Positions 7,811 to 57,095 of a DNA stretch of 64,000 bases are shown here, piece after piece. Numbering within the stretch: position 1 is the first letter of the stretch; each line of letters opens with the position of its first letter. The stretch comes from Blasia pusilla (taxonomy: Eukaryota). A model generated the notes under the pieces. The model had not been told where the DNA came from. It did no database searches and was given only the letters and a program-made list of their open reading frames with translations. The DNA lies in the NCBI GenBank assembly GCA_050084515.1, contig CM114271.1, positions 39,928,001 to 39,992,000 of the forward strand. Direction: 5' to 3'. The translations under genes were made by a program, and so were the position numbers.

Positions 7811-7834
7811 ATACAATATACATCACTTTTATTG

Positions 7835-13409: not shown

Positions 13410-13509
13410 TGTCGTGCACATATATATCGTTGTCACCAAACACACACACGATCCCATGCTAACTTATGACGTCCAAACATCGAGACAATAAATACCAAAA
13501 TATCTCCCA

Positions 13510-13556
<47 letters not shown>

Positions 13557-14035
13557 AAACCAAACCCACTTTCCTAATGTGAGGCTTGGATTACACACAT
13601 AAGGTAAGGAGGACCATAGTTCCGTCGCCTCATGCCAAGAGGTTCAACAAAGAGAGAATGAGCTCTCAAGCTTTCTCTTCTTGAGGTATACCTGCTTCTC
13701 TCTCCCAAGATCTCTCCACCGTACATAAACTATGGTCATAGATCACCTCCTTGGTTTTCAACCTATTGTAGGAGAGCAAGACCACTTCCAAAAAGTCATG
13801 TTAACTATACTCAAAACATCAACTTACCCTAAATAGTAAGTTTCTCAATATGGCTCCAAATGAGCTGAAACGAAGAGGAAGTATGTTCTTTCAGGTTACC
13901 TGTGGCCTCAGAAGGCCATCCTTGACCTCTTGATGTTGTCCTCCATAATACTTGAAGGCGTTCTTCTAGATCTTACCGATCTAATCTAAAAGACATGATG
14001 TCATGCAAATACACATCACTGCCAATATACATCGG
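13410..14035 (-). mobile_element. LTR copy of the DNMT/PHD Gypsy family, containing a (CT)n microsatellite at ~13514-13552
   Basis: Starts tgtcgtgc; colinear with 35459-36130 (gatcccatgctaac, gccaagaggttcaacaaagagagaatgagctctcaag). Confidence 0.8.
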
Positions 14036-24672: not shown

Positions 24673-26061
<1,389 letters not shown>

Positions 26062-26849: not shown

Positions 26850-29800
26850 ATTTATTTAGTAGTATTTTTATTATCTGTCATAATATAAATATAATTCCTC
26901 GAGCTTACTTTTGACAAGGTAATATATAATTGCCCATGAGAAAATACTGGATTGGAAAAGTAAATACCAATTCTATCTAATGTTTGACCTTGAGACTTAT
27001 CAATAATCATTGCAAAAGTAGGACGGATAGGAAATTGAAATCGTCGTAAATCAAAAGGTAGGCCGGAATCAGAAGCAATCAATGGAATGCGTGGAATGAA
27101 AACTCGAGCTCCAATATTTTTTCCCGTGATAATTTTTGCATCTATAAGATGTCGACTAAAGCCAACTATCATCAGCTGAGTCCCGTTTGCTTGTCCCTTT
27201 GCTCCATTCATATTCCGTAATAGCATTATCAGAGCTCCAATCTTCAAAGTCAAACAATGAGGTGGCAATCCCGATGGTAAATATGTATTCAAAAATTATG
27301 TTGGATAAACAAGTCTCATCTCATCATCGGAAACAAAATCAGCACTCAAGAAAGTATGCTCTTGCAAAAACAAAATAAATCATTAATAATAAGAGAGATG
27401 ATAGAAAAATGTAGCAATACAACAATCAAAATATAATAATGATATTCAAGAATATAAATATTACCTCTCTTGGAAATCGAGACATGATTTCAGTGTTTAT
27501 AATATCCATAGTAGTATTCTTGGTTGACAAAATGGATGTACCCCTCAATAAATCAATGTCACTCCACTTATGAACATCGTGTCCATAAACAATGACAATG
27601 AGATCATTGATCCTTGTGGTTCTAACAATTATCGCATCCGGAACTTGTATAAAATCCTCTCCAAGGTCCAAATGTAACCGTACACGACCCTCTCCTACCT
27701 CTAATAACCACCTTGCAAATGCTTCTTGCTCTTCTCGTGCATATCCTGCAAATAAATATAAGATGAAGGAAGAAGTAAATATTAAAAATAAACAAAAACC
27801 AGATGAACTGAAAAAGGTGAAATATTAGGTTTATTCTTTAATACCTTGTACAGTATTAACTCTCATGTTGGTAGTGAGTTTCAATAATCTCACGTTAGAC
27901 CAAATAAGAGATCTCCTAAGTGTTGCATGCATAACTGTGGCACGATCTCCACGACGAACAACTGGAAGAAGTTGTCGAAAGTCACCACAAAAAAAAAACG
28001 ATCTTCCCTCCATCGAGGATCCATCAAACCCATGATATCTTGGAAAGTACAATTAACGTCCTCAAATGCGTGACGATGGATCATAGGAGCTTCATCCCAC
28101 ACGATCAACTTTGCCTTTTGTATAAGGCGGGCCATATGACTATTGACCGATAGGCTGGAAAATCGATAATAAAACAATATGTGAGGAACATTTATGAAGG
28201 ATAAATCAAAGAATAAAACAATAATATGCATGCCATAAAAGGAAAAGAAATCTTAAATCTAGACTTACTTGCAAGTGGAACTTTCATGTAATTGGATAGG
28301 AATCTTGAATCAAGAATGAGAAGTACGACCTCCATCCAATAATAAAGCGGCAATCCCCGAAGATGCAACTGCAAAAGCTATATGACCCTCGCTCCGTACC
28401 ATTGCAAGAAGAAGGTTGTACAAAAATGTTTTTCCTGTTCTGCCATGACCATCAATAAAGAAAAGTTTTGCCTGAAAATCCATATTTTTCGTTATAGAAA
28501 AGCACTTTAAAAGAATAAAACTTAAAAAATTAAAAGAGTAACAAAATAATAATAAAATATACTATACATAATATCCATTTCCAGAAGGTGGTGCATCCTG
28601 TAAGATATCGCGAAAAGCATTATAAATAACTTCCCAAATAGCTCGTTGTCCATCATTTAAAGATATCTCTCCTGCTCTCATACGTTCGCAAAGCATATCA
28701 TGATCGTAGGAGAGCTCTTCCTCTTCTAGACGCGAAATAGATAAATCACGAGCTTGGAAATCAGGTTGCGGCATGTCAGGGAAGTCCGCCATACTCTTAC
28801 CATGATCTTGAAGATGGTAATGGACCTCCAATAACGCAAGATTAATAATATGAACATCCAATGGAAGGGTTGGAATACCAACTCTCTATTATAAGGAAAA
28901 AATATAGAAGTTAAAACGTAAATAAAGTACCTAAAATATTCATAAGAGAAATAAGACAAAAATTGACTTAACAAAAGGCATGCATATTACCTCACGCCTT
29001 TGATGTAGAAGATCTTCTGTCAATGGAACCAAAAACTGTTCCCACACCATAGCCGGAAGGGAAGGTGTATTATATAGAAGATTGATGGCAAAGAGTAGAC
29101 GTAATGAATAGCCAGTACGAATGACAACCGCCTCTTCAAAGCAAGAAAAGATCTCTCTATCGTCCTCCAAAAGTCCCATCTGAATAGCGGTCTCTTTGAA
29201 GGTAGGATAAACTACACCATCGATGGTTCTCAAATCTTGATATGATTGAGCTCCTCTCACATGATGGAGAAGTAATCGTAACCAATGACGCTCCCCTTCA
29301 GCTAGGATTAGCCAAAAAAAAAGTATTAGGAAGGAAGCATGAATGTGATTTTAACATTAACTCAAATTTTTCCTTAATAATTGTATCTTAACAAAGAATA
29401 GAAAGTTTACATGGATTTGTCATATACAGACGTCCAATAGGATGTCCACATCCTTTTCGTGCACGTTTACGCGGATGCCATTGCTTCTTATTCCAAGAGT
29501 AATGAGAAGGGAACTCCAAATAAAGATATTGTCGCCCAGTCAAATCAGAAACATTTGTTGCAAACCATTGAGTGAGAGTGATTTCCTTACTTCGTTCCAG
29601 AATATTACCCAATGAATCTTGCCCATGAAAATATACCATTTGACTGTTTGGAAGAGGAACAATCAATCTCACAATATTTGGTTGCTCTGCATGTAGACTA
29701 AACTTGAAGATTCGCCAACATGCTTCTGAAGAAGAAATATACCTTCATACCATACAATATAAATATTGTTAGAGTCCCACATAATATCATAGGAAAAATT

Positions 29801-32800
29801 GGGAGATCTTGAAAGATAGAAGGGATCGAAATACCTTGCATCAAGATATAATTATGTCGCATCAATAGTATCCTCTCCTGATGTAGTATTTTCCAAGGTA
29901 TATGATATTGCATCAGATCTTTTGTACACATACTTATAAAAGTACTTTACTGCCAAGATGCTATTTGTTATCTCCAGATTGATATGACAATCAAATAAAG
30001 TACATAACATTGGATTGTATGGAACCGCCCAACGATTATCAAAGTCATGATTTGACTTATAATCAATCTGCCATTATCACGCCTGCATAAACACATATAG
30101 AAGTATGTTAATAGTTGGGGAAAATAGATAGCACACTAATAGAAGAACATTAAATGACAAAATAAACAACAAAACCAATGAATTACCTCTTATAAATAAC
30201 ATATCCATCCTCATTCTCCATTGTCATTGATACAAAGGGCATTGGGTATCCTTTGGAATATTTTATTGTCGTTTTATCCGTGCAAGGTGTAGTTGGATAT
30301 ACTACTCCACACCGACCATGAATCATACAACTTCTTACAGTAGAATGTAGCCTAGGATGAGTCATGGGATTCAGAATCTCAGCATATATAATATCGTCAA
30401 AATCAGAGGTTGTCCTTGGCTTATCCTTAGAAGCAAGAATAATTAGGATATGCACATGTGGTAGCCCTCTCTTTTGGAACTTGACCACATGAATGCATCC
30501 TACCACTTGACCCAAAATATGCTTATCCAATATAAGTCTCAAAAACTCCTTCTTTTGTTGGAAAACACGTACAACGAGGTCATGACGATCTGACGTTGAT
30601 TGCCCATGAAGCAGAGCAGAAGTAATCTCTGGCCATTTAGGATTGCAAGTTATAGTAAAAAAGTAGTCAAGCTTCCCAAAATGTCTCACAATGGCCATAG
30701 CATCATGGTATAATTGATGCATGTGACGGGATCCTCCTATGAAAGACGAAGGTAAGATAATACGTCTCCCTATGCCTTGACCGTTCACATCATCCTGAGT
30801 CATGGCATCTCTGACACCTTGGTATGAATCAACTCTCAACTCTTTTTGATGCAATCGTATCCAAGTTAGCCGTTGCATTTCGATAGTCGCATACATATCC
30901 ATCATACATTCTTGAGTAAGACGACCAAACCTCAACAACCGATTATTATCCATAGCGTTAGCTCGCATTTGAAGTATGAATGAAGCAAATTGTAAAGTTG
31001 TAATGGTCTTTGAACTCGCCTCATGAATGGTAACCTCACCTTGAATTTCTCCTTGTACAATATCATCTCTATCTTCATCCATCATAGCATCCCCTCTTAA
31101 CGGCAAATCATCTCTATGATCATGTTGCACTTGCAAAGGTATCCCAGGATGCCAACGTGCTTCATCATAAACAAAAGGAAAAACAAAGTGCAATGGGATA
31201 TATGCTTCATTCAAGTTTGACAGACGACGAATCCCTCCTCCATGTAAGCGAACAATAATATCACGTCCTTCTACTTGCTCACTCCCATCTCCAGGCAAGA
31301 TAGATACAATCTCTAAAGCAACAGCAAGGTGTATCGTTTTGCATCGAGACCTCGCTTACTACCCTTAAGAACAATATGAAAGTCAGAATTACATGGATCA
31401 ATAGCCACATTTCGAAATAAAGCCACATATGGATTATGGGCATGTAACATATCTCTGGCCTCAATTGATCCCGATAATCTCCACTCATAATCCTTCTTCT
31501 ATGCTCCATCTGATGCTCATCATCATGAATATAAATTTGAGCGAATTGTGGAGGAGCACCACTTTCAGCATGAAGAGGTCCAATAGAATCATATACACCA
31601 CCTTAAATCCTGAAGTTTCCTATACGGCCTCGTTGCTCTATCACATGTGCCCAAGTAGATGCCAATTGAAGAGCACTATTATAGGCACGTGCATTACACA
31701 AAAAATGAAGACTATTTGAACTCATACCAGAAAGTAATTTTGCTAACCGATGCGACGGTGATCATCAAGGAAGAATCGGAGTTTAAAGTGGAGACTATCT
31801 TGCGTTCAAGATAGAGGGCCAGCAAGTATGAATACTTGGTCCATAAAACATACTAAAAGCCGAGCTTATAAACCTAGTATATTTCACTCTCTCACACTTC
31901 CAATGTAGAGCATTGCAAGTCGGACAAACAACATTCATAAGTCCAACACTAAAACGACCAATCATACTATCAATACGATCTCCCAACCTAAGAATTCGAA
32001 TGTGATTCTCTTCAAAGTTAGGAATACGTGCAATATTGAGCAACTTTTTCAAGTTCACAACCCTTCTAGATACAACATTTGGAATCGAGGCATGTATATT
32101 GTCTTCATTTTCTTCCATGTGGTCTTCACGATTGGCTGCATTGGCATCGCTCCTTATCAACGGATCACAAATATATGCAATCTCATGTACTTCATCCAAA
32201 TGTGATCCCACATTTGGAATCGAGGCATGTACATTGTCTTCATTCACTTCCATGTGGCCTTCACGATTAGGTCCATTGGCATCATTCCTTATCAACGAAT
32301 CGCCAACATGTGCAATCTCATGTACTTCATCCAACTGAGCATGTCTTCTTCTTTGGCCCTCAGCTCGAGCAACTTGAAGCATGTGAGATAATCGTAGATG
32401 ATTGGTAGGAACTGGAAGACTGCAAGCAGAGGTTAAGAAATTAATATATATGATTATAATAAGAATAAAAATACATACAAACATATCTATATTAAATTTG
32501 AGTATATAGTTTAGAAATATACATTGGAGATGGTAAGACCACAATCCTAGAGTTTGGAATAGCTTCAACTTCATGATGTACCATAATTGGCCTGCAAAAA
32601 AAATTGTTATTAGAAATCATTCATAAAAATTTAAGACCAAGTAGGAAGCATCAATAATAAAAGTATGTAAAACATACCTTGTATTAGCTTGAGTATGAAA
32701 GTCATTAGTAGTCATAGCCTCGACTTCCTCTCTAGGAAAAAGATTAACAAACAATTGATAAACATTCGCTTGGGCCAAATTATTGTGCCTTCTTCTCTGG

Positions 32801-34862: not shown

Positions 34863-35458
34863 GAACGTATGCCGTAACTATAAGCTTCTCCCATACTCAA
34901 ATAAAATTTATTTTCATGACAACGGAGTTATAATTTCCAACGGCCAATGTGCGTAATCATATGTACGTATCTCAATGTCCTTTCAAACATCCAAATGTTA
35001 TGCCCAAAGCTCTTTCATACATCAATTTAGATAAATATGTGTATTTTCCCAAAACCATAATGACATTAATAGATGGTTGAATGGTAAGATCTAAATTCAT
35101 TCCATAGTGATGGCCGGATGGTTACATTTTTGCGCGCAATAATCTTATAGTTTCTAAAAGGGGTTGCGTTCTATGCAATCGGCGGTAAAAGGGTGGAGGA
35201 AAATTTGAACTACATAACCAAAATTCATGGGTTTAAATTATTATATAAACTTTTATTTTATTTTATATAAAAAAATCAAGCTTTTTTTTATGAGAAAAGA
35301 TAACTATTTTTAAAAATCAATTAATTAAAAAAATTATTCAATAGTAATATAAATATTTCCGTAGTTTAAATTTACTCATTTCAATTACAAGAATAGACGC
35401 TGAATCTCCTAATGTCTTTTCTGACTTTGTAAGTTACAACGAACGACACCTTACAACT

Positions 35459-36102
35459 TGTCCAGCGTATACACATCGCTACACAACATACATCACTCTC
35501 ACCAAAAATCCACACAAACACGCACGATCCCATGCTAACTCATGACATCCAAACAACGAGACAAGAAGTACCAAAATATTTCCAATTAAAATAAAGATCC
35601 AATCTCTCTCAATACCATAGCTCTCAAATGTGTGCACTCTCACATATCTCTCTCAATGTCAAACCAAACCCACTCTCCTAATGAGATGCTTGGGTTACAC
35701 ACACAAGGCAAGCAAGACTATAATTCCGCCGCCTTATGCCAAGAGGTTCAACAAAGAGAGAATGAGCTCTCAAGTTATCTCTCCTTGAGGTATAGCCCTC
35801 CCCTCTCCCAAACTCTCTCAATGGTAACCTATGCTCCCAAGTCGCCTCCTTGGCTCTTGACCTGATATAGGAGGTCAATGGCTACTTAATACAAATAGAA
35901 AATCGACCATATACTGAAAATGGTACTTACCTAAAATAGTAAGTTTATGAATATGGCTCCAAATAAGCCGAAACGAAGGGGAAACCTGCTCTCTCACGTT
36001 TCCCGGGGTCTTAGTAGGTCATCCTTAACTTCTTGAGTATGTCCTCCACTACTCGTGGAGGCGTTGTATTAGATCTCATTGATCTATTTTAAAAGACGTG
36101 AC
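35459..36102 (-). repeat. 3' LTR (~644 bp)
   Basis: TGTC...GACA ends; homologous to 41305-41784, 44414-44734, 13410-14000 and 7835-8352. Confidence 0.8.
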
Positions 36103-36422
36103 AGTTATCGTGCGCATACACATCGCTACACAACATACATTGTTGTCACCAAACACAAACACACACACACAAACACGCACGATCCCATGCTAACTCGTGG
36201 CATCCACACAACGAGACAACACGTACCAAAATATTTCCAATCGCCCCCCTAGGTGGTGGTTAAGTCCCTCTAACTCATGATAGCCATCTATCCCTACCTA
36301 CCATGACATACATCTCTCGAACGCTAAGAGCAAGAAGGCTGGGTGCTCATGTGGCCCCATCATTAGTCGCCTTCTTGTCATCCATATCACAGACACAAGT
36401 CGGAATGTAGAAGTACCTACGC

Positions 36423-36565
36423 TATGTACATCTGGGATACATCCATCTTCCCTGAGGAACCCTAGTGAGAGGTGGCGTCAAACATGCCATATGCCATCCT
36501 CTCGAACATCCATCACAGACTAGCATAGTGGCTGCACCGTGGGCAAAACCACACAACATACTTCA
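36423..36565 (-). pseudogene. PHD finger at the integrase C-terminus
   Basis: In frame after a single TGA: SMLCGFAHGAATMLVCDGCSRGWHMACLTPPLTRVPQGRWMYPRCT*, a C4HC3 pattern with two Cys degraded. Confidence 0.88.
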
Positions 36566-37740
36566 CAAGCCTACAAGAACTATTGCTAAGCTTGGATCAT
36601 TTGTATCGTCAATGTTTGAAAGATGACATGACGCACAATTACGCACATGGTCCTTCCAAACCATACCATCGCGTCCCTCCAATAAGAGAACACCGGATGG
36701 CAAAACCTTACGCACTCTCAAGATGGTGCGCCCTGCAATCACATCCAAGGTCGTGCGTGCCGTCTGCAAGTAAACATAGTCTTCTTGATGAGAACTCCGC
36801 ATAGTATGTCGATAACCACCTCCCTGAATAGTCGCATACCTCAATGTATCCCGATGTTGCGCAATTGCCAAGTTCTCAAACGCCATGGGCATCACTCTCC
36901 GAAACAACTCAGCCCTATGAGAATTTGTTCGCATCCATACATCAGGGTTATCAAGGTTCAACACCTCACCAACATCTCGATGAATGGTCGTAGGTAAATC
37001 AGACTCTCGGCCATACAAGAGCAAGTACGGTGAGAAAGACACTAAGGATGCATGCTTGCTGAATCTGTATCCCATCGCCAACCACGGCAACTGGAGGTCC
37101 CAATTCCCTAGGTGACCTCTCTGCAAGCCATACTTGCGTAGTCCTCTCTTCACCGTTTGCACAACCCGCTCCGCTAGTCCATCTGCCTCTGGATGATCTC
37201 GCGAAGTAGTGCGATGGTCAATCAATGCCTGATCACATAAGGCCTAAAACTCCTCGCGGAACTGTGTATCCTGGTCTGTCAACATCTTAGATGGTATGCC
37301 GTAATGACTCAACACCCGATCTGGGAAGGCATACGCTACTCCCTCACTCTATCCACTTCGATAAGTGCTCGACCATCACCAACACATAGCGACTATGGCG
37401 CTCCGTCAAAGGCAAATGTCCTGCAAAATCCAAACTCCATGTATAACCTAAACCCATGATTGGAAGTGGATGCAACTGTAGAGTTGGAGCATTGAATGAT
37501 GCTCGGACTCGATCACACACCATGCATCTTGCAACAAACTGCTGAACGTGAGTCTGCATGCCTCGCCACCAATATTGAATCTTGAGCAAGCTGTACATTT
37601 GCTTCACTCCAAAATGACCCAATTCCTCGTAGGCATGATGCACTAAATGTCCTCTTTGCAAAGGATGAGGCACTACGCGCACTCTATCATCCTTCCACAC
37701 TCACAACACATGTGTCTCCTACCACCAAAACCGTCTGGCT
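36566..37740 (-). pseudogene. Gypsy integrase (HHCC plus DDE)
   Basis: HAYEELGHFG...CMVC; WSLDFAG; LTDQ; DGLAER. Confidence 0.92.
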
Positions 37741-38039
37741 CGCTATAGGATCCGATCCCGCTCTCTAGCACCCACTATGCTCGCGATGCTGCCAGTACGC
37801 GGGTATTCCAAGACCACTCCATCGTCGTGAATGTCTCGGCCACCTGTCATCTCCTCACCGGCCTCTGGATCTAAGAACTCTCCATCAGACCTTGCCATCA
37901 AAGTCTCAGCAATCTGGCTCTCTATAGCCAACAAGCCCAAATAGGCTGACGCATGTCATCTTGGCACCAACTCTCATCACTCTCACCATACCAACGAGCT
38001 TGAGTTGCATCTCGCTGACTAGGGCATGAATTACGGCTC

Positions 38040-39400
38040 AAACCATATACATCTTGGTTGAGCATCTCAAATCGAAGCACCACCTAGAAGTCATACTCCT
38101 GCAAAAAAGAGCCCGCCTCGCAAGCTTCCGTGTAAGCTTGTCGGACTCCATCAACCACTTAAGTGGCTGATGATGAGTAATGATGGTAAAGGGATTGCCA
38201 AATAGATAACATCTAAAATGTGTGATAGCCCACACTGTAGTCAAGCACTTGCCCTCATACAAGCTATAAGTCGCCTCTGCACCGTTGTTCGAGCAACTAG
38301 TGTAAGCCACCATAAACTCTCTACCATCATCATCATGCTGGATGAGCACGGCTCTAAGCCCCAACATGGTCCAATCGATATGCAATTGGAAAGGACGCCC
38401 TCTGATTGGTCTCCTCAATATGAGGGTGAACGTCAATCTATCCTTGAGCATCTGAAATGCTCTCTCCTGCTCATCCCCCCAGTGCCACTCCTCATCCACC
38501 TTGGTCAGCTAGGTCAACGGCTTCGCAATCCAGTTGAAACCCTTGACGTACCGTCGATAGACGTTCACCAATCCCATGAATGCCCGAACTCGACTCACAT
38601 CTGTAGGGTGTGGAATATGTGAAATAGCCTCTACCTTTGTCTACTGCACACCAAGGCCCCTTGGATATATCGTATGACCAAAGTACTCAATGTGGTCGTT
38701 GAAGAACTTGCACTTGCCTCGATGTAGTTTCGGCCCATGTAACTACAATCGTCGAAACACCTCCTCTAGATGTCGCTCATGCTCCTCAACCGTGGCGCTA
38801 AAGACTACGATGTCATCAATATAATACCTAGCAAAATCCAGACCTGCCTAAGATCCTATCCATGACCCTCTGAAACTCAGCCGGGGCGTTCTTTAACCCA
38901 AATAGTAAGAACCGCCACAAGTACAAGCAATCCTTCCCGTGAGGATCGATGCCCCAAAATATCGTCTTCTTCATGTTCTCCAATCTGATAGGCAGTTGAT
39001 GGTATCCGGCTCAAATATCTAACAAATTGAAGACCTTTGCATGCCGAATACCATCAAAGATCTCCTCACGTGTAGGCATGGCATACCTATCGGATTTTGT
39101 CTCCCCATTGATAGGTCGATAATCTCCACACATCCGCCTATCCGTCTAGTTGCCATGCACATCCTTCTTGGCGGGCATGATAGTGGCAGATGCGTACTCC
39201 CCATGCGACATCTCCTCTAGTCCTCCTCCGACCAAGTCCTGGCTCCCACTCTGAATCAGAGCCCTCTCCATGTCACTATACTTGTAGTATTGTCGGAAGA
39301 TCGGCGTGTCACTCAACAACTCAATGCGGATCCATGGACCCTTCAACGTACCCAAATGATGCATACTAAATTCAAAACAGCTCCTATAACTCGTAAGAAA
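38040..39400 (-). pseudogene. Reverse transcriptase and RNase H
   Basis: FGLKNAP and YYIDDIVVF (~38803-38826), IEYFGH; RNase H PFQLHID..., YEGKCL and HQPLKWL. Stops and frameshifts present. Confidence 0.93.
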
Positions 39401-39814
39401 TTGGTGTATCCGGCACCGCTCTCCTCCTATCAACTTAGGGTCCATATCTAGCTCCCAAGTCTCCATCGTCACTATGGTAGGACTCTGCGGCGCGGGTGTT
39501 GGTGGTTGCTATGGTGCAACTCCGTCTCGAACAATAAACTTGACTGCTCCCCTGCATCCAACTGCAAAATCGGATCTCCATGTGCAGTACCCGGAACCAC
39601 GCTTGATGTAGTGGCTACCATCTCCTGGCGTACCTGCAAAACATCCCAAGAAGTCCAAGGGTGTCTCTCCCGATCATCCTTGGTGTGTCGATCTCCTCGG
39701 GTCTTGCCCCCAGCCACTGCCTCAACCGTCTCGGTAGGCATGGGATTTACCAACACAACTATTGTGATCTGTCGCATTCTCAAACGACGCTGCTCAGCTA
39801 CTTATAAGTTGAAA

Positions 39815-40770
39815 ATCCACCTCAAGTAGTTCAGGTCCATCGCTTGACCCAAGACATGACATTGTGATGCCTCTGATAGTGACGGTACTACCATCACTCC
39901 TGTGGGGAATCCCATCGCTTGCTCTCGCTCATCGGCGTTGGGCTCCACCAACATGTGTACGTGGTCATCCTAAACCAAGCCAAGTCCGGCCTCCTTGAAT
40001 CAATAGGAATGCATGCATGCATGAAACTCACCAATGTGGGAAAGGCTGCCCGTGGCATGCCAATCTGGTTGACCACAGTCAACGAGGTCGATCATCTAGC
40101 CCCACTGACTGTGATCGACGACCCGGATCGAATATAGAATCCACCAACAAATCGGAGGGGCGGTCTACTCTCGCATATGCCCTCTGTAACACCTTATATG
40201 GTACCAAGTTGGTCCACTAAAGACGCGCGCGATGTGCTCGTGAACCCACACTCGTTGCATCCAAAAAAATTGTCGGCCCATCCATGCGTGCACCTGATGT
40301 GCACTCGTCACCACACGGGACCTCGAATCGCCCAAAATCAGTACATTCTCCAGAATTTATGTTGGAGGACGAGACTCATGCTCCAACAAGTGTCACAAGA
40401 TCCGCATCATCTCCCAAAACAACATGGACCTAGACTCAGCTAATCTGCTACCCCGTCCAACACTTGACTGGCCCTAACATGGCCAACTATCAATGACCAA
40501 GTCTATGGTCCCTACCGGCTCCAAGTCCTACGCCCCCAACAATGAAATGTCCCTCGGTAAGGAACCCTGGTAATCGTGAATGGCGGACGCATATAACAAG
40601 TCAAAAAAACATACGCATAACTATACCACATGGTGAAGTGAAGCGCGCCTCGCAACATCATCAATCTCCATATACATGTACTGGTGCACGTGCACTCCAG
40701 CGTACAAAACAACACATAACCAAATGCTGATCCCTCCGAAGAGTTCCAACACCCAAATACCCTCCTCTTG
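39815..40770 (-). pseudogene. DNMT3-like cytosine-5 DNA methyltransferase domain inside Gypsy pol
   Basis: Motifs in order: VLELFGGIS (I), YMEIDD (II), IDLVIDSWPC*G (IV; Cys codon 40477-40479), ILENV (VI; ENV 40342-40350), DATSVGSRAHRARL*WTNL (VIII), EPNADEREQAMGFP (IX), VLGQAMD (X). Confidence 0.9.
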
Positions 40771-41030
40771 GATGCACCACACAATCAGGGTGGTGTCCAA
40801 AGGGATCACAACAGCACTCCTGCCTACCTTGGGTTCCTCTAACCCATCACACTCTGGTGCAAACGTCTCACTCTACGCGGTCTCCACATGCCTAGTGGCT
40901 AAGCGTCAAAGCTCCTCAGTCAAGCCCAAAAGTGGCACCTCTCCTCCACGGACTGATGCGGCTACCATGACACTCCTCTCCATGGAAATGTCAGGAATGG
41001 GAGTATCCTCTGCATGGACATGTCCCTCAA

Positions 41031-41304
41031 TCAAATCACTAGGCAAGTGATGGCACTGCTAAATGCTGTTAAGGTTGCCATCTCTCGTGGCCGTCGCTCG
41101 ATCACTACACATGTGAATCGAATGGGTAATGAGGTAAGGCATCCATCACTTGACTGCCATCCTAGTCTGTAGGACGTTGACTTCTCCCAGTAATCCAGCG
41201 AACACCCCATCGGGTATAACACTGCTCCACCAACCAAGACCTCGTAGGACTCTTCATCAATCATTATCACCTTGGTTCGCACCACAGACTTGTTGTGCAT
41301 AGAC
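41031..41304 (-). pseudogene. Probable C-terminal part of the retrotransposon aspartic protease
   Basis: YEVLVGGAVLYPMG resembles the protease C-terminal motif and sits in the expected position. The catalytic DxG part and gag are missing. Confidence 0.5.
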
Positions 41305-41784
41305 ACGTCGCTACACAACATACATCGCTGTCATCGAACACACACACAAACATACACGATCCCATGCTTACTCATGGCATCCATACACAGAGGCGAGAAG
41401 TACCAAAATATCTCCAATTAAAGTAAGATCTAATCTCTCTCTACACCATCTCACACCATAGCTCTCAAAGATGTGCACTCTCTCTCATGTAAAACCAAAC
41501 CCACTCTCCTAATGAGAGGCTTGGATTACACTCACAAGGTTAGGGACCATAGCTCCGCCGCCTTATGCCAAGAGGTTCAACAAAGAGAGAATGAGCTCTC
41601 AAGCTCTCTCTCTTGGAGGTATACCCTCTTCCCTCTTCCAAGCCCTCTCAACGGTAATCTATGCTCGTAGGTCATCTCCTTGGCTCTTGACCTGCTGTAG
41701 CGGGTCAAGGGCCACTTACCAAAGTGGAAAGTCAAATATCCCCAATATGGGAATTTACCAAAAATAGTAAGTTTCTCCATATGG
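41305..41784 (-). repeat. Internal truncated LTR copy
   Basis: Colinear with ~35470-35955. Confidence 0.85.
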
Positions 41785-41786
41785 AA

Positions 41787-42095
41787 TTACATGGGCCGAA
41801 GCTACATCGAGGCAAGTGCAAGTTCTTCAACGACCACATTGAGTACTTTGGTCATACGATATATCCAAGGGGCCTTGGTGTGCAGTAGACAAAGGTAGAG
41901 GCTATTTCACATATTCCACACCCTACAGATGTGAGTCGAGTTCGTGCATTCATGGGATTGGTGAACGTCTATCGACGGTACGTCAAGGGTTTCAACTGGA
42001 TTGCGAAGCCGTTGACCTAGCTGACCAAGGTGGATGAGGAGTGGCATTGGGGGGATGAGCAGGAGAGAGCATTTCAGATGCTCAAGGATAGATTG
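41787..42095 (+). repeat. 309-bp inverted near-identical copy of 38434-38742 (RT segment)
   Basis: Reverse-complement match with about three substitutions; shares the same premature stops. Confidence 0.92.
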
Positions 42096-44198
42096 TCGGT
42101 ATAAGATCGTGGGTGCCGCCTGCTGTAAATACACGTAATCTCCAAGATGAAATCTCCTAATCCCTTGACGATAACTTCCTTCACAAATGGTCGCGTACCT
42201 CAATGTATCTCTATGCTGAGCAATAGCTAAGTTCTTAAAGGCCATAGACATAACTCTATGAAAAATCTCCGTCCTCTCAGAACATGCTTGTACCCACATA
42301 TCTAGATCATCAAGATCTAACACCTCCGCCATGTCACGTCGAATAGCTACATGTAAATGAAGCTCTCTCCCAAAGAGCAAAAAGTATGGTGAAAATGTCG
42401 CCAAGGATGTCAGCCGACTACAGCGATAACCCATAACCAACCATGGCAAATGAAGGTCCCACTCCCTGAACTGTCCTCGCTGCAAGCCATACTTGTGTAA
42501 TCCTCTCTTTACCGTCTCTACTACTCTCTCCGCCAACCCATCTGCCTCAGGATGATCTTTGGACGTGGTGCGGTGATCTATCAGCGCTTGACCACACAAG
42601 GCCTGAAACTCTCCCCTCAACTTGGTACCGTGGTCTGTCAACACCTCCGCCGGTGCACCAAAGTGACTAAGCATACGCTCTAGAAATGCATAAGTTGTTC
42701 CCTCGCTCGTCTTTTCCGATAGTGCCACCAACTCTATCCACTTGGAGAAATGCTCCACCATGACCAACACGTACATATGATGACGCCTCGTCAATGGCAA
42801 AGGTCCCGCAAAGTCTAAACTCCATCAATAACATAAACCCATAATCGAAAAGGATGTAACTGCGGAGTGGGAGCATTGAAGGATGCTTGCACTCTGTCAT
42901 ATACCATACATGTGGCCACAAACTTCTGTACCCGAGTATGCATGCCGCGCCACCAAAACTAAACCTGGAGTAACCTATAAGTACCCTTTACTCCAAAATG
43001 CCCAACTCCTCATGGGCATGTCGCACTACACGTGCACGTTGGGAAGGATGAGGTACCACTCGTATCCTACCATCTCCCCATACCTATAAAATGTGAGTCC
43101 CCTCCCACTTGAACCTCTTGGCTCCTTGTAGGATCCGATCCCGCTCCCTAGCACTCACTGTGCTCGCTATGACGCCAGTGCGCAAGAACTCCAGAACCTC
43201 CACGTCGTCATGGATATCACGACCACCTCTCGCCTCCTCTCTGATCCCCGGATCCAAAGACTCATCATCTAACCCCACCATTGGAGTCATCACCTGTGAC
43301 TGACCTACCATAGTCAACCAACAAAGATAGGCAGACGCATGCCAACCGGGCACCATCTCCTCATCACTCTCTCTGTGCCATCAAGCTCCTATGTTGTCTC
43401 TCTGACTCGGACATGGGTTATGACTCAACCCATCTGCATCCTGGTTCAGCCAACCTGGCTTCATACTCCTATAGTAATAGATCCCACCTAGCAAGCATTC
43501 CCGTAAGCTTGTCGAACTCCATCAACCACCTCAACGGCTAGTGATCAGTGATAAGTGTGAAAGGGTTGCCGAATAAATAGCACCTGAAATGTGCCACGGC
43601 CCACATTGTAGGCAAGCACTCTCCCTCGTAAGAGCTATATTTTGCTTCTGCAATGTTGTTGGATTGGCTTGCGTAAGCCACAACGAACTCCCTCTCCTCG
43701 TCATCTCTCTGACCTAGACCCAACATGCTCCCATCTGTATGTAATTGGAATGGGCGACCCCTAATCGATCTCTGTAAAATGGATGAGGACGTCAACCTGT
43801 CCTTAAGCTCCTGAAATGCTCGCTCCTCATCATCTCCCCACAACCAAACCTGATTAAGTCTCGTCAACAAGGTCAAAGACTTTGCGATTGCACTAAAACC
43901 CTTGACATACCGTCGATAGAAGTTTGCCAGTTTAAGAAACGCTCGGACTCGATTCACATCTATAGGGCGTGGAATCTACGCAATAGCCTCCACCTTTGTC
44001 TGCTGAACGTCTAACCCACTCAGGTATATGGTGTGTCCCAAGTACTCAATTTGCTCCTGAAAGAATCTGCACTTGCCTAGATGTAACTTAGTCCATGTAA
44101 GTGCAATTGCCAAAACACCTCCTCCACGTGTCGCTCATGCTCCTCAATCGTGGAACTGAAGATAAGAATATCATCTATGTAACATCGCACAAAATCCT
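42096..44198 (-). pseudogene. Second decayed pol copy (partial RT, RNase H, integrase)
   Basis: CYIDDILI at ~44162-44185; PFQLHTDG, YEGECL, LTDHG, DGLAER. Truncated at both ends. Confidence 0.9.
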
Positions 44199-44413: not shown

Positions 44414-44734
44414 CCTTGAGGTATACCCCTCCCCTCTCCCAAGCTCTCTCCATTGTAACCTATGCTCCCAAGTCACCTCCTTGGCTCTTGACCTGATGTA
44501 GGAGGTCAAGGGTCACTTACTAAAAATAAAAAGTTGACCATATACTCAAAATGGTACTCTCCTAAAATAGTAAGTTACTCCATATGGCTCCAAATGAGCC
44601 GAAACGAAGGGGAAACCTCCTCTCTCAGGTTTCCTGAGGCCTCAACAGGTCATCTTCAACCTCTTGAGTCTGTCCTCCACTACTCGCAAAGGCGTTGTGC
44701 TAGATCTCACCGATCTATCCTAAAAGACGTGACA
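44414..44734 (-). repeat. Partial 5' LTR ending at the GACA terminus
   Basis: Colinear with ~35783-36102. Confidence 0.85.
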
Positions 44735-46957
44735 AACTGGAAAGTGTCTTATTAGGGTGGCATGTTACCTAAAATAACTTCATGGGAGGCTGCCCTAAAG
44801 TTTGACTGCCCGATGATTAAAGTGACTCAACCATAGATTAGAAAAAGCAAGTGAATGTATTGCCGTAAACTTTGATAGAGCTCTGGTTCGCGATGCAGAG
44901 TTTCTACATGACGATACTGCGGTAACCACAGCAAGGTCGATTCTCCCCTCGATTTCCATGAATATCCTTCTTGTCATCATTGTTAAGTCCGAACTCTATT
45001 TCTCCTAGATTTTCCTCGAACTCTTGACCTTGAGCTTTATGAATGAAAGACTTCTTCAATTGTAATATCTCTACTAATCGTACATTAATTGGAGAGTATA
45101 TGTCTCCTTTCTTCACCTAGGGTTTCCAACCAATCCAATTATAATACAGGTCCTTAGGTAACTTAAGATCAATTTTGAAATCAATTATTGAATAATGATG
45201 GATAATTGAAATTATCCGCCATTTACTAATGCATTGCACGAGTATGAACTAATTGATATTTTTTTGTGTGATTAGAATTCAAGAGCTTCTCTCTACAACC
45301 TCCACTATTAGGCCATTTGAATCGGTTCTCTTTGTCTCCTGCTGCCAAATATTCTTGTGGCATCTCGGTGCTAAGTCAATTTATAATGTAGAAGCTCCAA
45401 AATGCAAATTAATCCATAGGAACTTCTCAACCGTAGGAATCGAATGGAGAATCAGAGATGTGAGCCATTAATAAAAACATTTGGATTCACTACACTCCGT
45501 ATTAGTATTTGTCTACTCTCTCCACTCCATTCCATAAGTATCTTTTTTCTAACTTAGTGTCCAATTTAATTGGACACTGAATTAGAAAGAAGAATTACAC
45601 TCTCCATCGAGTTTGAAAAAAACCCAAAATGAAGACCCGCATACTGGTTTATTTTTCCTTCTCCGACGTGGCCTTGAGATCCTATTATGTTTGTGCGATT
45701 AGATTTTAGAGATTTTATATTTTTTTTTCTAATGTGGCCTTGTGTACATTTTTTAAAATTTTTTAATATCCTTTTTTAATATATAATTAAAAAAGGATGG
45801 GATTCAAAGACCCTTCCTCCGGTTTTGAGGTGTACATTTTGATGACACATATAACACCAAAACAAAACTAACATAACAAAAGAATTAAACTAAGAAGATG
45901 AACAAATTAGTGAGATACCACGCGTGATTTTCACGTATTTGCATAGGACATATATTATGCTAGTTTTCTCTTATTTCATATCCACCTTCCCCGGGCAGTT
46001 TAAGGTTTGCTTCGCCGTGGACGTGAAACAACGACACGTCGCGATGTTGATTTCGGAGACGATGCCGGGAAACGACGCGCGGGCACGACATACGAATCTA
46101 TGATCGGGCTGTTGCGAATAGCGGCAAAGACACGTCGATAGGCTACTTTCGGAGAAAATACCGCGTAACGACGCGCGCGCACGATAGAAGATGCGAGCGA
46201 GTCTGGCTCAACGGCGGCGACGAGAAGATAGAGTCAAGAGAGAAAGCAGCCGTCCTCGTCGATAGAATTTGACCACGAAACACAGACAGGGCAAGCCGCG
46301 AGACCGCGTCAAAGAATCGCTAACGATAACGTCTTGTTCCCGCCTTTCGTCCAGGCGTTGTGACCTCGTGGCGCGACTCGGAAAAGGGCTTTCGTCGGCC
46401 CCGCCCAAAGCTCACGCGGACCCGTCCCCATTGGGGTGCTGCGTCCGTGCGTGCTCGAGGTCGGGACTCGGGACTGGAAATACCCCAGACAGCGACTGTA
46501 CGCGTATCTCACCTCTTTCTTTCTTCATTATTCGTTTGTGGAAGCGCTCCTCCTCCGGTAGATGGCCAATGAACAATGCTCAAGAAGCTTTTTCCACGCG
46601 TCAACTTCGGACTGGGAGTCCGGGAGGGGATCCGCGTCGACTCGCTAACTCTCGGGGACGTCCCACGAGAATTCGCTTGGGGGACTCCGTAAGAATGGAG
46701 AGAAACCGGGAAGGCTCGGTAAACTACCGGGAGGTCGGTGCGACCCTGGTACTCCGGTTGCCAGGAGAATCGATCTGATTTCTCCACCGGTACCGCTATA
46801 GAGTACAGACTGTCCGACCAGTGTGGCGTAACAGTAACGTGGACGAAGGGCTCGGAGCAGCGACCTCCCACGCTGTGACGGGAAACAGAGAGGAAGTTTC
46901 TAGTCAAAGTCTGTCGCCGAGATGCTATCAAGGGGCGCCTCCCACGGCCGTTGTAGG

Positions 46958-48004
46958 AGATGTATTTGAATGGTGAGACCTAAATTCATTCCATAGTGGT
47001 GGCCGGGTGGTCACAAAGAGTACGGGTTTGGAAACTTTTTCGTCGTTTCGTAAGTTTTTAACACGTAAGTTTTCCCGAATTCACATGTGTACAGGACCAT
47101 TTAATTAATTATTAAATTTATTCTATAGTGGTGGTCACATTTTGGCGGATACAATCTTATCTATTTTATTAAAAAAGGACGGGTTTGGAAATTTATATGA
47201 TGTTGACACATAAACCTTTTTAAATCTCCCATATTGACACGTGTAGAAAAACATTTAATTAAGTTCTAACAAAAAGGACTAAGGGATTTTTTCACCCGTG
47301 CTTATCTATTTTATTAAAAGAGGAGGGGTTTAGAAACTTATATGGTGTTCATGCATAAACTTTTTAAAATCTTCCCGTATTGACATGTGTAGAAGAACAT
47401 TTAACTAAGTTCTAACGAAAAGGACCAAGTGTACTAAGGGATTTTTTCACCCGTGCTTTGCGCGGGCAAGATGCTAGTAGTTCCTAAAAGGGATTGCGTC
47501 CTGTGCAGCCCGTGATAAGAGGGTGGAGACAGCAGATGGTAAAAGGATGGAGGAAAAGTATAAATACATAACTAAAATTCACGGGTTTAAATTCCTACAC
47601 ATAAATTTATTTTTTAAATTAAAAATCATTTAAATTAATTTCAAACAATTTTATTGATTAATTTTTTTAATTATTAAAATAAAAAATTATTTAATAATAA
47701 TAGAAATATCTCCATATTTGAAGATTTATTCACTTCAATCACAGGGACAGACGATGAACCTCCCCGTGCCTTTTATGACTTTGCAGGTTGCAACCAACGA
47801 AAAGTGTCTCGTTGGGGTGGCATGTTACCTATAACAACTTCATGGGAGGCTGCCCTAAAGTTTGACTGCCCGATGATTAAACTGACTCCACCACAGATAA
47901 AAAAGCAGGAGAATGTATTGCCGTAAACTTCGGTAGAGCTCCGGTTCGGGATGCGGAGTTTCTACATGACGGTACTGCGGTAACCACAGCGCGGTCGATT
48001 CTCC
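46958..48004. repeat. Paralogue of the sequence interrupted by the Gypsy block (35070-35450 plus 44740-44946)
   Basis: Shared ctaaattcattccatagtg and catgggaggctgccctaaagtttgactgcccgatgattaaa...ggtcgattctcc. Confidence 0.85.
47160..47477 (+). mobile_element. Non-autonomous Helitron (318 bp) with an internal tandem duplication
   Basis: 5' TC; 3' hairpin cccgtgc-ttt-gcgcggg then CTAG; inserted between A and T with no TSD. The empty site aatctta|tagtt is visible at ~35141-35152. Confidence 0.88.
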
Positions 48005-51000: not shown

Positions 51001-52137
51001 TAAGATCACTAGGATATCTGGAGTGAATTTATTAAAAGAAATCATGCCTAATATTTTTAATGTGAGTTATATTAGATCTGGGTTGAGCAAATTTCTCTTA
51101 AGTTGAGGAGATAATTCTTATAAAAATAAAAGAGATTTTTGACTCAAAGTTTGATTTGAAGATGAACGAATCTTAAGCACTTGAACTATAAATATGGGCT
51201 CCATCTTTTGGAATGCATGTCCATGGACACGTCCAAACTTGTCCGTCAATGTCCGTCCTACTGATACACTTGTCCGTTTGTGTGCAACCATTCTACACTC
51301 CCCCACTTTTATCGTACATTATAAGATGCCATACTAGGTCCTTTTCAAGACACTTTCAAATTCAACATATTAGCAAATTAAGCGTATTCAATCATCATCC
51401 ATGGGAAAAATCAGGAGGAATTATTTCTTAGCGGTGGAAGAAAATTATGTATGATTAAATTAGAATACATTTTTTATATAGAATTTGTAGGTAAATTTTT
51501 GAGGAATAAAACTTTTTGCCGTTACTGGAATTCGCATGGGAGAACATTTAATTGTCATATTACCACTCCACTATCACCTTATTTCTATTATTGAATTGAG
51601 GTTAGATTCAAGAGGAATACGCAAGGGGACAAAATGTGCCTGTTTTGACAGAGAGAGAATCGACGTTGACTAAATGAAGTGGGAGACGAAGTAAAAGGGC
51701 ATTCACATCTACTGGAGAACCATATCTTAACCATTTTCATTAAGCCCTCTGTGGTCATTCTTCTAAAATGTAAAATCCCGTAAAGATATACTAGTATATT
51801 GCACATCATCAGTCATGCCTGTGAGCACGAGTGGAGGGTTTTTGGTGCACTATTTTGCGTATGTATGGCCCATCCCATCAATGGCAACCGACAACAACAT
51901 GGGATCGATGCCTCTAGTGACTTTTGATGGATGGTCTAGGATGAATGGGGACATCACCTCTGAAACCATTTGTTATGCCTAGACTTGTTAAGTCACCTCT
52001 TAAACACTACACGTATCAACACCAAAAGAGGAAAAAAATATACACGCATTAATGCAAGAGGAAAACGTTCTCAAACCCCACCCTCTTTGAATAATATAGA
52101 TTTAATTACATTTTGACCATAAATTTATATATTAAGG

Positions 52138-52767
52138 GGAATAAAATATATGTAGAAAAAAGATGGGAAACCCATCACGATACAAAAGAGTGGGCATGGA
52201 GACCCAAAAAATAGACCTCAAGAGGCCGGAACTGGCCCCGAGGAGAAAGAAGGGGGCCTTCCTCCCTAACGACCAAAATCACCAACAGCAGAGACAATAT
52301 CAACAACACCTAGAGAACTATGACTACTACTAAGTGGGCCTCTAGCATTGGCGTCTCCAACCGCCTGAGCCCGCCGTAGAAGCCCATTTTCCTGGGCGCG
52401 CTGCAAAGCTATGGAGATCCGTTGCCTACAATAAAGTATCGCAGTGGCTAAGGACAACCCATTTCTCGACTAGAGATGATGGGCACAATCCGTAAGGAAC
52501 GAGTCAAACCTCTCCCACATCGCCTCGTACATCTCAATGGCTAGGGGGATAAATCGATGTCCGTCATGAAGTCGACTATAAATGTGGGTCTTCTTGACCG
52601 CCGCCACCGCCGCTCCTTGTAGCAATCTCCCTTGTGCTACCACTTGGGCTCGCATCGCCTCCCGCGTAGGATCCGTCACTACAACATCCGCTACCACCAC
52701 CTCAGACTCCCTCGTCACGTAGAGATCAACACGGATAAGGGAATCCCGCATGGAGTAGTGCCTCTCT
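52138..52767 (-). mobile_element. 5'-truncated 3' fragment of the RLE non-LTR element, inverted
   Basis: Reverse complement of ~56455-57095; encodes VVVADVVVTDP, FIPLAIEMY and ISIALQRAQ plus the 3' UTR. Confidence 0.92.
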
Positions 52768-56300: not shown

Positions 56301-57095
56301 TTGGCTCGACACATTGCGAGTGTCGCCGGAGTCTGGATCCACTTGGTGTGCATTTGGTACGGTGTCCAGTTGGGGGTGAGAGGATAGCCACTCACGATGC
56401 AATGCGGGATATTATGTTCTCTATTTCTCGGGAGAGTGGATTCCATGTACAAAGAGAGAGGCACTACTCCATGCGGGATTCCCTTATCTGTGCTGATCTC
56501 TACATGACGAGGGAGTCTGAGGTGGTGGTAGCGGATGTTGTAGTGACGGATCCTATGCGGGAGGCGGTGCGAGCCCAAGTGGTAGCACAAGGGAGATTGC
56601 TACAAGAGCGGCGGCGGCGGCGGCGGCGGTCAAGAAGATCCACATTTATAGTCGATTTCATGACGGACATCGATTTATCCCCCTAGCCATTGAGATGTAC
56701 GGGGCGATGGGGGAGAGGTTTGACTCGTTCCTTACGGATTGCGCCCATCATCTCCAGTCGAGAAATGGGTTGTCCTTAGCCACTGAGATACTTTATTGTA
56801 GGCAACGGGTCTCCATAGCTTTGCAGCGCGCCTAGGCAAATGGGCTCCTGCGGCGGGCTCAGGCGGTTGGAGACGCCAATGCTAGAGGCCCACTTAGTAG
56901 TAGTGATAGTTCTCTAGGTGTTGTTGATATTATCTCTGCTGTTGGTGATTTTGGTCGTTAGGGGGGAAGGCCTCCTTCTTTCTCCTCGGGGCCGGTTCCG
57001 GCCTCTTGAGGTCTATTTTTGGGGTCTCCATGCCCCCCCCTCTTTTGTATCGTGATGGGTTTCCCATCCTTTTTCTACATATATATTTTATTTCC
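53310..57095 (+). mobile_element. Non-LTR retrotransposon with RT, zinc knuckle and restriction-like endonuclease (CRE-like), copy 1, decayed
   Basis: GGIRPIAIGE, QLGVA, QVDVENAFNSVSR, GYPLG, LAND (degraded ADD), LRVLGVPLG; CEC...GVHLVRC; HDAMRD; ADL...ADVVVTDP; FIPLAIEMYG; stop at 56959-56961. 5' boundary approximate. Confidence 0.88.

Follow-up and report, generated by a model that had tools for sequence, protein, structure and literature searches.

A decayed liverwort-type Gypsy retrotransposon with a PHD finger on its integrase and a DNMT3-like methyltransferase in the same polyprotein

Retrotransposons that carry a DNA methyltransferase are rare, and they raise the question of why a parasite should bring a silencing enzyme with it. 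This question is posed again by the 64,000-nucleotide stretch of Blasia pusilla DNA that was analysed here and is called the window (GenBank assembly GCA_050084515.1, contig CM114271.1, positions 39,928,001 to 39,992,000 of the forward strand). On its minus strand, the remains of a Ty3/Gypsy polyprotein gene (pol) hold a PHD finger behind the integrase (INT) and a DNMT3-like C5-cytosine methyltransferase (DNMT) domain further upstream. A preliminary description, made from the letters of the window alone, had proposed a retrotransposon that unites a chromatin reader and a DNA-methylating writer. This architecture recurs in relatives of the element, but the proposal fails for the copy in the window, which is a pseudogene whose PHD finger has lost two zinc ligands. 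To judge from its relatives, the locus is probably a dead, 5'-truncated Gypsy-DNMT3 element of a liverwort type, and in active copies the PHD finger would tether integration to chromatin.

The PHD finger comprises 46 codons of the minus strand and matches PF00628 far beyond chance, with 38.6 bits against a gathering cut-off of 24 (E value 1.1e-9) and coverage of profile positions 3-47 of 47. The frame of the C-terminal integrase open reading frame (ORF; 36566-37243, minus strand) runs on past a single TGA into the PHD finger, and the residues read after this stop in the minus-strand translation of 36300-37243 are SMLCGFAHGAATMLVCDGCSRGWHMACLTPPLTRVPQGRWMYPRCT, up to the closing TAG (Table 1). 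This is exactly the residue string given in the preliminary description, the start of which (36423) lay 2 nt too low for the coding part at 36425-36562. The suggested origin of the stop from CGA fits the alignment with the 40 best relatives, in which the TGA column is occupied by Arg in P0003, P0004, P0006, P0008 and P0009 and by Lys in P0005. Six of the eight zinc ligands of the Cys4-His-Cys3 set are left in the window, the first having been replaced by Ser (AGT, 36560-36562) and the seventh by Tyr (TAT, 36437-36439). Among 213 relatives, these ligands are kept in 213 (C1, C2 and C3), 212 (C4 and H5), 211 (C6), 205 (C7) and 199 (C8) proteins, the shortfalls at C7 and C8 being chiefly gaps at truncated ends. 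At position 36438, 32 of 35 DNA reads have a letter that would encode Cys as the seventh ligand; these reads come from other copies, because each of them has at least two further differences. The window copy is a pseudogene that does nothing itself. The metagenome locus nearest to the window PHD (L042) has lost its seventh ligand too, in this case to Phe (WVFPRC, compared with WMYPRC in the window), which may be a coincidence or a common weak spot.

Decay extends over the whole pol region. Pfam places PHD, Integrase_H2C2, RNase H and DNMT all on one strand, and the Ty3/Gypsy order of protease (PR), reverse transcriptase (RT), RNase H (RH) and integrase, including an H2C2 zinc finger and a DDE integrase, was recognized by PF17917, PF17919 and PF17921 and by colinearity with relatives; the colinear proteins P0017 and P0006 have RVT_1 and rve. 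From residue 156 in the DNMT to the last PHD cysteine at residue 1513, the window is colinear with P0017, an intact ORF of 1516 amino acids (aa), which confirms the claim that PHD and DNMT can stand in one polyprotein. The stretch from DNMT to PHD is continuous, without repeats breaking into it; 15 or more in-frame stops interrupt it and its frame changes six times, as counted from the tblastn pieces obtained with P0017. Its integrase occupies at least two frames, with stops, and corresponds to residues 1010-1513 of P0017 and 511-1028 of P0006. At its 5' side the element is truncated at the protease remnant, against the repeat at 41281-41800. In the reading that we prefer, the pol order of the family is PR-DNMT3-like-RT-RNaseH-INT-PHD, flanked by split direct repeats, in Ty3/Gypsy elements of the green lineage.

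The DNMT domain of the window lies upstream of RT and does not adjoin the PHD finger. When 39800-40872 (minus strand) was read through with X at the stops, PF00145 was matched with 28 bits against a cut-off of 22 (E value 1.8e-6). Motifs I (ELFGGI), IV (SWPC*) and VI (ILENV) share one frame, motif VIII (HRARL*W) lies in another, and motifs IX-X (EREQAMGF...LGQAMD) return to the first, as shown by tblastn with P0017. A single-frame reading contains nine internal stops, and a domain in one frame broken by stops alone was ruled out in part, given the different frame of motif VIII. With stops beside motif IV and within motif VIII, and with the changes of frame, coding integrity is lost. Its affinity was assessed with the DNMT of P0017, for which 29 of 34 matches in the PDB were DNMT3A, DNMT3B or DNMT3C (E value about 1e-6), with M.HaeIII and a plant DRM behind, in agreement with the DNMT3-like nature proposed earlier. 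A word-index search with the same DNMT part among longer proteins returned P0017 alone and is uninformative on cellular DNMT3 relatives.

The junction of integrase and PHD finger is not a peculiarity of this locus. When the integrase C-terminus and the PHD finger together (P0002) served as the query of a word-index search, again among longer proteins only, 88 matches were obtained, of which 77 have PF00628 and 6 also PF00145 in precomputed Pfam assignments. The sources that bear a name cover liverworts, mosses, charophytes and chlorophytes, namely Marchantia polymorpha (73% identity), Riccia sorocarpa (86% over part), Calypogeia fissa, Sphagnum magellanicum, S. fallax, Klebsormidium nitens, Closterium, Pleodorina starrii and Chromochloris; K. 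nitens contributes the INT-PHD gene models P0010 and P0030 (49-50% identity), P0067 and P0085. An exhaustive search of 1.84 billion representatives yielded 287 proteins at E values up to 1e-30; in 146 of the best 150, the alignment extends to query residue 258 or further, so that it crosses the TGA and enters or traverses the PHD finger. INT-PHD is found in 213 of 224 relatives, and 204 of the 224 align through the PHD end. Intact relatives thus do not stop before the PHD finger; a stop there would have overturned the preliminary description. Throughout the family, the PHD finger extends the integrase at its C-terminal end and is under strong constraint. It stands where the preliminary description had put it, at the position of the chromodomain of chromoviruses, C-terminal to the integrase. 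Pfam reported no chromodomain family, the mark of chromoviruses, either for the read-through of the window or for the 16 relatives that were scanned. The ORFs of the closest relatives end 1-10 residues after the PHD finger, as is also the case in the clade of the window, and 143 of the 204 relatives that reach the PHD end continue for more than 100 residues beyond it. In P0045, P0058, P0106, P0109, P0141, P0146 and P0153, all of the order RT-RH-DNMT-INT-PHD, about 150-500 residues without a Pfam family follow the PHD finger. A search of the ESM Atlas with P0017 returned generic Gypsy clusters alone (best score 0.89) and was not drawn on.

These data also bear on the idea that the PHD finger reached the locus by a local chimera or the capture of a host exon, or that the locus is a domesticated host gene. 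What speaks for a host gene is a Marchantia polymorpha model, Mp_7g09570 (P0004), which is annotated as a 612-aa protein with a 'PHD-type domain'. Yet P0004 is itself a spliced mosaic of the protease end, DNMT motifs I-II and IX, the integrase C-terminus and the PHD finger of such an element, so it is likely a model derived from a pseudogene and not a host gene, and it can be flagged in genome annotation as a mosaic of a decayed element. A chimera is contradicted by 204 of the 224 relatives, which run unbroken from integrase through PHD and, where named, represent no fewer than nine genera among green plants and algae, and domestication by the stops and frame changes between DNMT and PHD in the window. 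We therefore regard a local chimera or host gene as refuted by the unbroken INT-PHD of the relatives, the co-occurrence of PHD and DNMT, and the decay of the window copy, and we give this explanation a negligible probability.

In how many relatives the DNMT accompanies the PHD finger was determined by phmmer with the DNMT of P0017. A DNMT was detected in 80 of the 224 relatives and stands together with a PHD finger in 79. The architectures were INT-PHD in 99 proteins, RT/RH-DNMT-INT-PHD in 49, RT/RH-INT-PHD in 35, DNMT-INT-PHD in 26, RT/RH-INT in 8, DNMT-RT/RH-INT-PHD in 4, INT only in 2 and DNMT-RT/RH-INT in 1. The 35 RT/RH-INT-PHD proteins belong to the clade of the window and are uninformative on a DNMT upstream, since they start at most 217 residues before the RT match; P0021, which is among them, starts within motif X of the DNMT. 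All 59 DNMT segments of at least 250 aa retain the catalytic Cys together with E-N in motif VI and R-x-R in motif VIII, by which measure the DNMT is catalytically conserved in the relatives. At an E value of 1e-3, PF00145 misses the DNMT of P0106, P0044, P0153 and P0037. The 6 of 88 proteins with precomputed PF00145, against the 80 of 224 found by phmmer, indicate that surveys based on Pfam undercount retrotransposons with a DNMT.

Two domain orders were distinguished by Pfam in the 16 relatives. In P0017, the order is that of the window, DNMT-RT-RH-INT-PHD, with DNMT at residues 82-140, RVT_1 at 550-713, RNase H at 802-906, H2C2 at 1089-1145, rve at 1164-1257 and PHD at 1470-1513. The order RT-RH-DNMT-INT-PHD is found in P0045, P0050, P0058, P0074, P0080, P0109, P0141 and P0146. 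A FastTree phylogeny of the INT-PHD part (98 rows, unrooted) has a basal split with only 79% local support, one half of which holds 47 of the 49 RT-RH-DNMT-INT-PHD rows. The window falls in the other half, together with every DNMT-first row, the undecidable rows and also P0085 of K. nitens. PR-DNMT-RT-RH-INT-PHD is the order of the window and of named streptophyte relatives, and RT-RH-DNMT-INT-PHD that of the chlorophyte Pleodorina and of most relatives other than the named ones. A scan of metagenomes with P0017 alone found no relative; a second scan, with the type-A alignment (A1), gave 80 loci. In 35 of them a DNMT lies upstream of RT, and 18 of these 35 also extend through the PHD end; of the remaining 17, most break off at a contig end or enter the PHD finger. 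The metagenome copies are themselves decayed. Co-occurrence of PHD and DNMT across copies, which the preliminary description had named as a check on its proposal, is thus seen both in the relatives and in the metagenome loci.

With regard to what the PHD finger might read, the 56-residue PHD of P0006 was compared with the PDB. The best match was PHD1 of KDM5A (E value 1.1e-15), followed by CHD4, KDM5B PHD1, Lid, KMT2D, KMT2C, ATXR5, UHRF1, WSTF, DPF3, BHC80/PHF21A and AIRE. The PHD fingers of KDM5A/B (PHD1), CHD4, UHRF1, BHC80, AIRE and similar proteins bind the unmodified N-terminus of histone H3 (K4me0 or R2) and not H3K4me3, whereas H3K4me3 readers have a cage Trp two residues before the zinc-binding His. 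In the family this residue is Gly in 193 of 213 relatives, and an acidic stretch lies between C2 and C3, with the Asp of the C-D-x-C motif present in 199 of 213. The PDB neighbours and the Gly suggest that the PHD finger of the family would most likely be a reader of the H3K4me0 type. An active mark such as H3K4me3 would direct insertion to promoters or open regions instead, and here it counts that the PHD class includes many H3K4me3 readers and that 204 of the 213 relatives have an aromatic residue (127 W, 60 Y, 17 F) just before the zinc-binding His. The Gly two residues before the His argues against this specificity, as does the fact that none of the classic cage readers ING, BPTF, TAF3 and PHF8 is among the 60 PDB matches listed; that the window copy lies inside another repeat and not at a gene is a weak hint from a single case. 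Reading of H3K4me3 appears quite improbable to us.

Tethering through unmodified H3 is thus the reading that we prefer. In active copies, the PHD finger at the chromodomain position would tether the complex of integrase and cDNA to nucleosomes and, by most likely binding the unmodified H3 N-terminus, would steer insertion off promoters marked by H3K4me3, much as the chromodomain serves targeting in chromoviruses. The DNMT may methylate the DNA of the element itself before or after integration, as was proposed by de Mendoza et al. for their elements (PMC5890265). The PHD finger might, alternatively, serve the DNMT of the element and not the choice of target, in the manner of an ADD domain that senses H3K4me0 and licenses or positions methylation of the new insertion. 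Such a coupling would agree with the 79 relatives in which PHD and DNMT occur together, with the position of the DNMT directly upstream of INT-PHD in the 49 RT-RH-DNMT-INT-PHD and 26 DNMT-INT-PHD proteins, and with the nearest solved PHD fingers, which are of the H3K4me0 type, the mark that ADD is known for as well. In the order of the window, however, RT, RNase H and integrase part the DNMT from the PHD finger by more than 1100 residues (P0017), and polyprotein processing would probably separate the two; moreover, the relatives offer no RNase H-to-integrase ORF reaching far enough upstream to judge PHD elements without a DNMT. We consider an ADD-like function unlikely, and it may be more attractive for RT-RH-DNMT-INT-PHD elements, in which DNMT, integrase and PHD are contiguous. 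Elements of this second order, with the DNMT next to INT-PHD, could conceivably yield one mature DNMT-INT-PHD protein. A further reading, which we put forward only tentatively, is that a Gypsy clade of green plants and algae has retained an H3K4me0-type PHD on its integrase together with a catalytically intact DNMT3-like writer, so that the DNMT-INT-PHD protein of the second order would read, integrate and methylate. If true, a single DNMT-INT-PHD protein would be the transposon-borne counterpart of the ADD-methyltransferase logic of cellular DNMT3, and the element could enter silent chromatin already 'camouflaged' by methylation.

Several points weigh against a dead Gypsy-DNMT3 element whose active copies are tethered by their PHD finger. 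That the PHD finger stays on the mature integrase after cleavage of pol is assumed. Its class as a reader rests on sequence neighbours and their known specificities, and the window copy is uninformative on function because of its two lost zinc ligands and its many stops and frameshifts. Membership in the group of KnitGypsy-Dnmt3, a Gypsy-DNMT3 element of Klebsormidium nitens, is suggested by the shared architecture, the repeat layout and the INT-PHD proteins of Klebsormidium (P0010, P0030). Finally, the insertion is a rearranged composite in its 5' half, which includes a second pol fragment and an inverted duplicate (Table 1).

Table 1. Position of the element's parts and repeats in the window
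Feature	Position	Strand	Basis or remark
Repeat B2, 3' terminus of insertion	35447-35594	-	pairs with B1, 85%
Repeat A2, 3' long repeat	35595-36103	-	86.6% to 44414-44734; 79.5% to 41288-41784
Repeat B1, copy of terminal ~135 bp, just upstream of 3' repeat	36105-36241	-	85% identity to 35465-35586
TAG closing the pol frame, one codon past the last PHD cysteine-Thr	36422-36424	-	translation
PHD finger, decayed	36425-36562	-	PF00628; C1>Ser, C7>Tyr; alignment with relatives
In-frame TGA at integrase/PHD boundary	36563-36565	-	Arg or Lys at this column in closest relatives
Integrase: H2C2 zinc finger (~37500-37655), then core and C-terminal SH3-like part	36566-37973	-	PF17921, E 1e-14
End of RT and RNase H	38012-38844	-	PF17917, E 7e-26; tblastn with P0017
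RT, N-terminal and core part	38849-39472	-	P0017 474-654 (46% identity), P0006 12-219 (59%)
DNMT3-like C5-cytosine methyltransferase domain, decayed	39805-40872	-	PF00145, E 1.8e-6; tblastn
Aspartic protease region, C-terminal remnant	41040-41252	-	matches P0004 residues 6-78
A-B type repeat, separating the pol fragments	41281-41800	-	repeat comparison
Inverted 312-bp duplicate of 38431-38742	41787-42098		98.7% identity; adjoins second pol fragment
Second RT-RH-INT fragment, cut before its PHD at 42102	42102-44197	-	DNA and protein matches; ~70% DNA identity
Repeat A1, 5' terminus of insertion	44414-44734	-	begins TG at 44734 in element orientation

The repeats that flank the coding region are split and do not form simple long terminal repeats (LTRs). 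They are arranged as A1...B1-A2-B2 with the coding region between A1 and B1, a layout that corresponds to the DIRS-like A-coding-B-A-B type. The ends of the insertion, 35447 and 44734, follow from an 'empty site' at 47664-47948, where a paralogue of the flanks (35307-35446 and 44732-44890) runs on without interruption. A block of 9.3 kb has been inserted into a copy of another repeat, and a putative 5-bp target-site duplication at its ends (AACGA / AACTG) is degenerate, with 3 of 5 positions equal. A simple-LTR model with a 5' LTR at 41288-41800 was discarded, as this repeat abuts the middle of the protease and the empty-site paralogue sets other ends; the repeat at 41281-41800 probably represents the 3' repeats of the second pol copy. 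Of five metagenome loci examined, two (L006 and L033) show the layout A1...coding...B1-A2-B2 right after the PHD finger, and in L006 the region between A1 and B1 contains DNMT, RVT_1, RNase H and H2C2 in this order by Pfam. L014 has A1/A2 and ends inside A2, L018 has one inverted pair, and L042 has none. The inverted 312-bp duplicate, which covers the RT/RNase H junction, is far younger than the rest of the nest, in which the repeats share 80-87% and the pol copies about 70% identity. It is placed exactly at the integrase cut of the second copy, before the PHD finger, and may be the product of gene conversion or of a recent rearrangement, or else an artefact of assembly.

An index of sequencing runs listed no RNA run as containing 36300-40900. 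The DNA reads (2667, of which 2388 lie only partly on this stretch) mostly have near-fixed differences; they stem mainly from other copies and are no test of the TGA at this locus. RNA reads from three runs with the same species label (X18-X20; 101, 124 and 107 reads) match partially with 95-99% likeness over the conserved RT and INT parts at 36606-39218, with 4-5 differences each and loose ends, and the first mate lies on the plus strand in most. This hints that some related copies, and not the one in the window, are transcribed in sense.

Elsewhere in the window, a third integrase fragment on the plus strand (6945-7783) shares 73% identity with 36863-37712 and is cut before the PHD finger. 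It is abutted by an oppositely oriented repeat block of the B-A-B type at 7794-8631, which matches 35465-36400, and a further A-type repeat lies at 13442-14032. A polyubiquitin gene at 24673-26061 (minus strand) consists of six head-to-tail ubiquitin units in one open frame of 462 aa. At 26852-31355 (minus strand) lies a decayed Rep/helicase of the Helitron type, with Helitron_like_N (PF14214, E value 3e-52) at 30186-31355, a Pif1 2B domain at 26855-27295 and broken helicase ORFs between the two. A 3.4-kb direct repeat (53637-57068 and 58342-61743), the copies of which share 82% identity, has related inverted pieces at 52137-52767; it probably belongs to another large repeat family or forms a tandem element.

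Taken together with the literature, the kind of element is already known, the liverwort-type member is new, and both of its features were partly known before. The novelty is lower than the preliminary description implied, because REM1 and KnitGypsy-Dnmt3 are documented precedents. In the literature searched, no text pairs PHD with DNMT, and none deals with liverwort members or with two domain orders; figures were outside the scope of this search. The PHD-bearing Gypsy element of Selaginella mentioned earlier could not be confirmed in the REXdb paper (PMC6317226), in which 'PHD', 'methyltransferase' and 'Marchantia' each have no occurrence. What is added here is the extension of the Gypsy-DNMT3 kind to liverworts and mosses, its tie to a conserved, putative histone-reader domain on the integrase in 213 of 224 relatives, and the existence of two domain orders. 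Reader specificity on the one hand, and the pattern of integration and methylation on the other, form a pair for testing.

The nearest known system is KnitGypsy-Dnmt3 (de Mendoza et al. 2018, PMC5890265), with which the Gypsy-DNMT3 kind was first described and to which the window is likened by description and not by element sequences. The methyltransferase domains from Symbiodinium and Klebsormidium were expressed in that study in a host free of methylation. As described there, a Gypsy pol contains a Dnmt3-related C5-methyltransferase inside the polyprotein, and the same is found in the window; conserved catalytic residues are shared by the relatives (59 of 59) and not by the window copy. According to the legend of Fig. 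4c in the same paper, KnitGypsy-Dnmt3 has repeats as in DIRS elements, the layout A-coding-B-A-B being printed for SymbioDIRS, and this layout was found in the window, L006 and L033. The host differs and is liverwort-like here, with the best named matches in Marchantia polymorpha and Riccia sorocarpa. The word 'PHD' has no occurrence in the text and three supplements of PMC5890265, drawings such as Fig. 4c being outside the scope of this count.

Accessory PHD fingers have been described in other LTR/Gypsy elements of the green lineage, which we compare by description. REM1 of Chlamydomonas (Perez-Alegre et al. 2005) is a PHD-bearing retrotransposon, as cited in PMC6673714 and PMC8557442, and the legend for Gypsy-7a_cRei in PMC9940879 lists PHD before INT, so its position may differ from that found here. 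The passages on either element mention no DNMT. Chlorophyte proteins (Pleodorina, Chromochloris) are among our INT-PHD relatives, and fusions of transposable elements with PHD fingers have been surveyed (bioRxiv 10.1101/2021.11.30.470311). LTR elements that join methyltransferase modules with a chromatin-targeting reader are described as EpiLTRs/DAM-LTRs (bioRxiv 10.64898/2026.05.21.726589); according to the passages concerned, these belong to euglenids and other protists and differ in combining a chromodomain with DAM (adenine) and DNMT4-like methyltransferases, and streptophyte Gypsy-DNMT3 is named there as earlier work only.

Chromoviruses, also Ty3/Gypsy, carry a chromodomain at the integrase's C-terminal end, according to 2008 work cited in PMC6673714 and bioRxiv 10.1101/2021.11.30.470311, whereas the element described here has a zinc-binding PHD finger instead; where the chromodomain is directed to H3K9me, the PHD of the family would likely recognize unmodified H3K4. 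With cellular DNMT3A, DNMT3B and DNMT3L, the family shares the combination, within a single translation product, of a zinc-finger reader of the H3 tail, which is predicted here, and a catalytic domain of the DNMT3 type. The reader of the element is, in contrast, a canonical single PHD finger nearest to KDM5 PHD1 and CHD4 and not an ADD domain, no PWWP accompanies it, and it is attached to the integrase, which in the order of the window places it far away from the DNMT.

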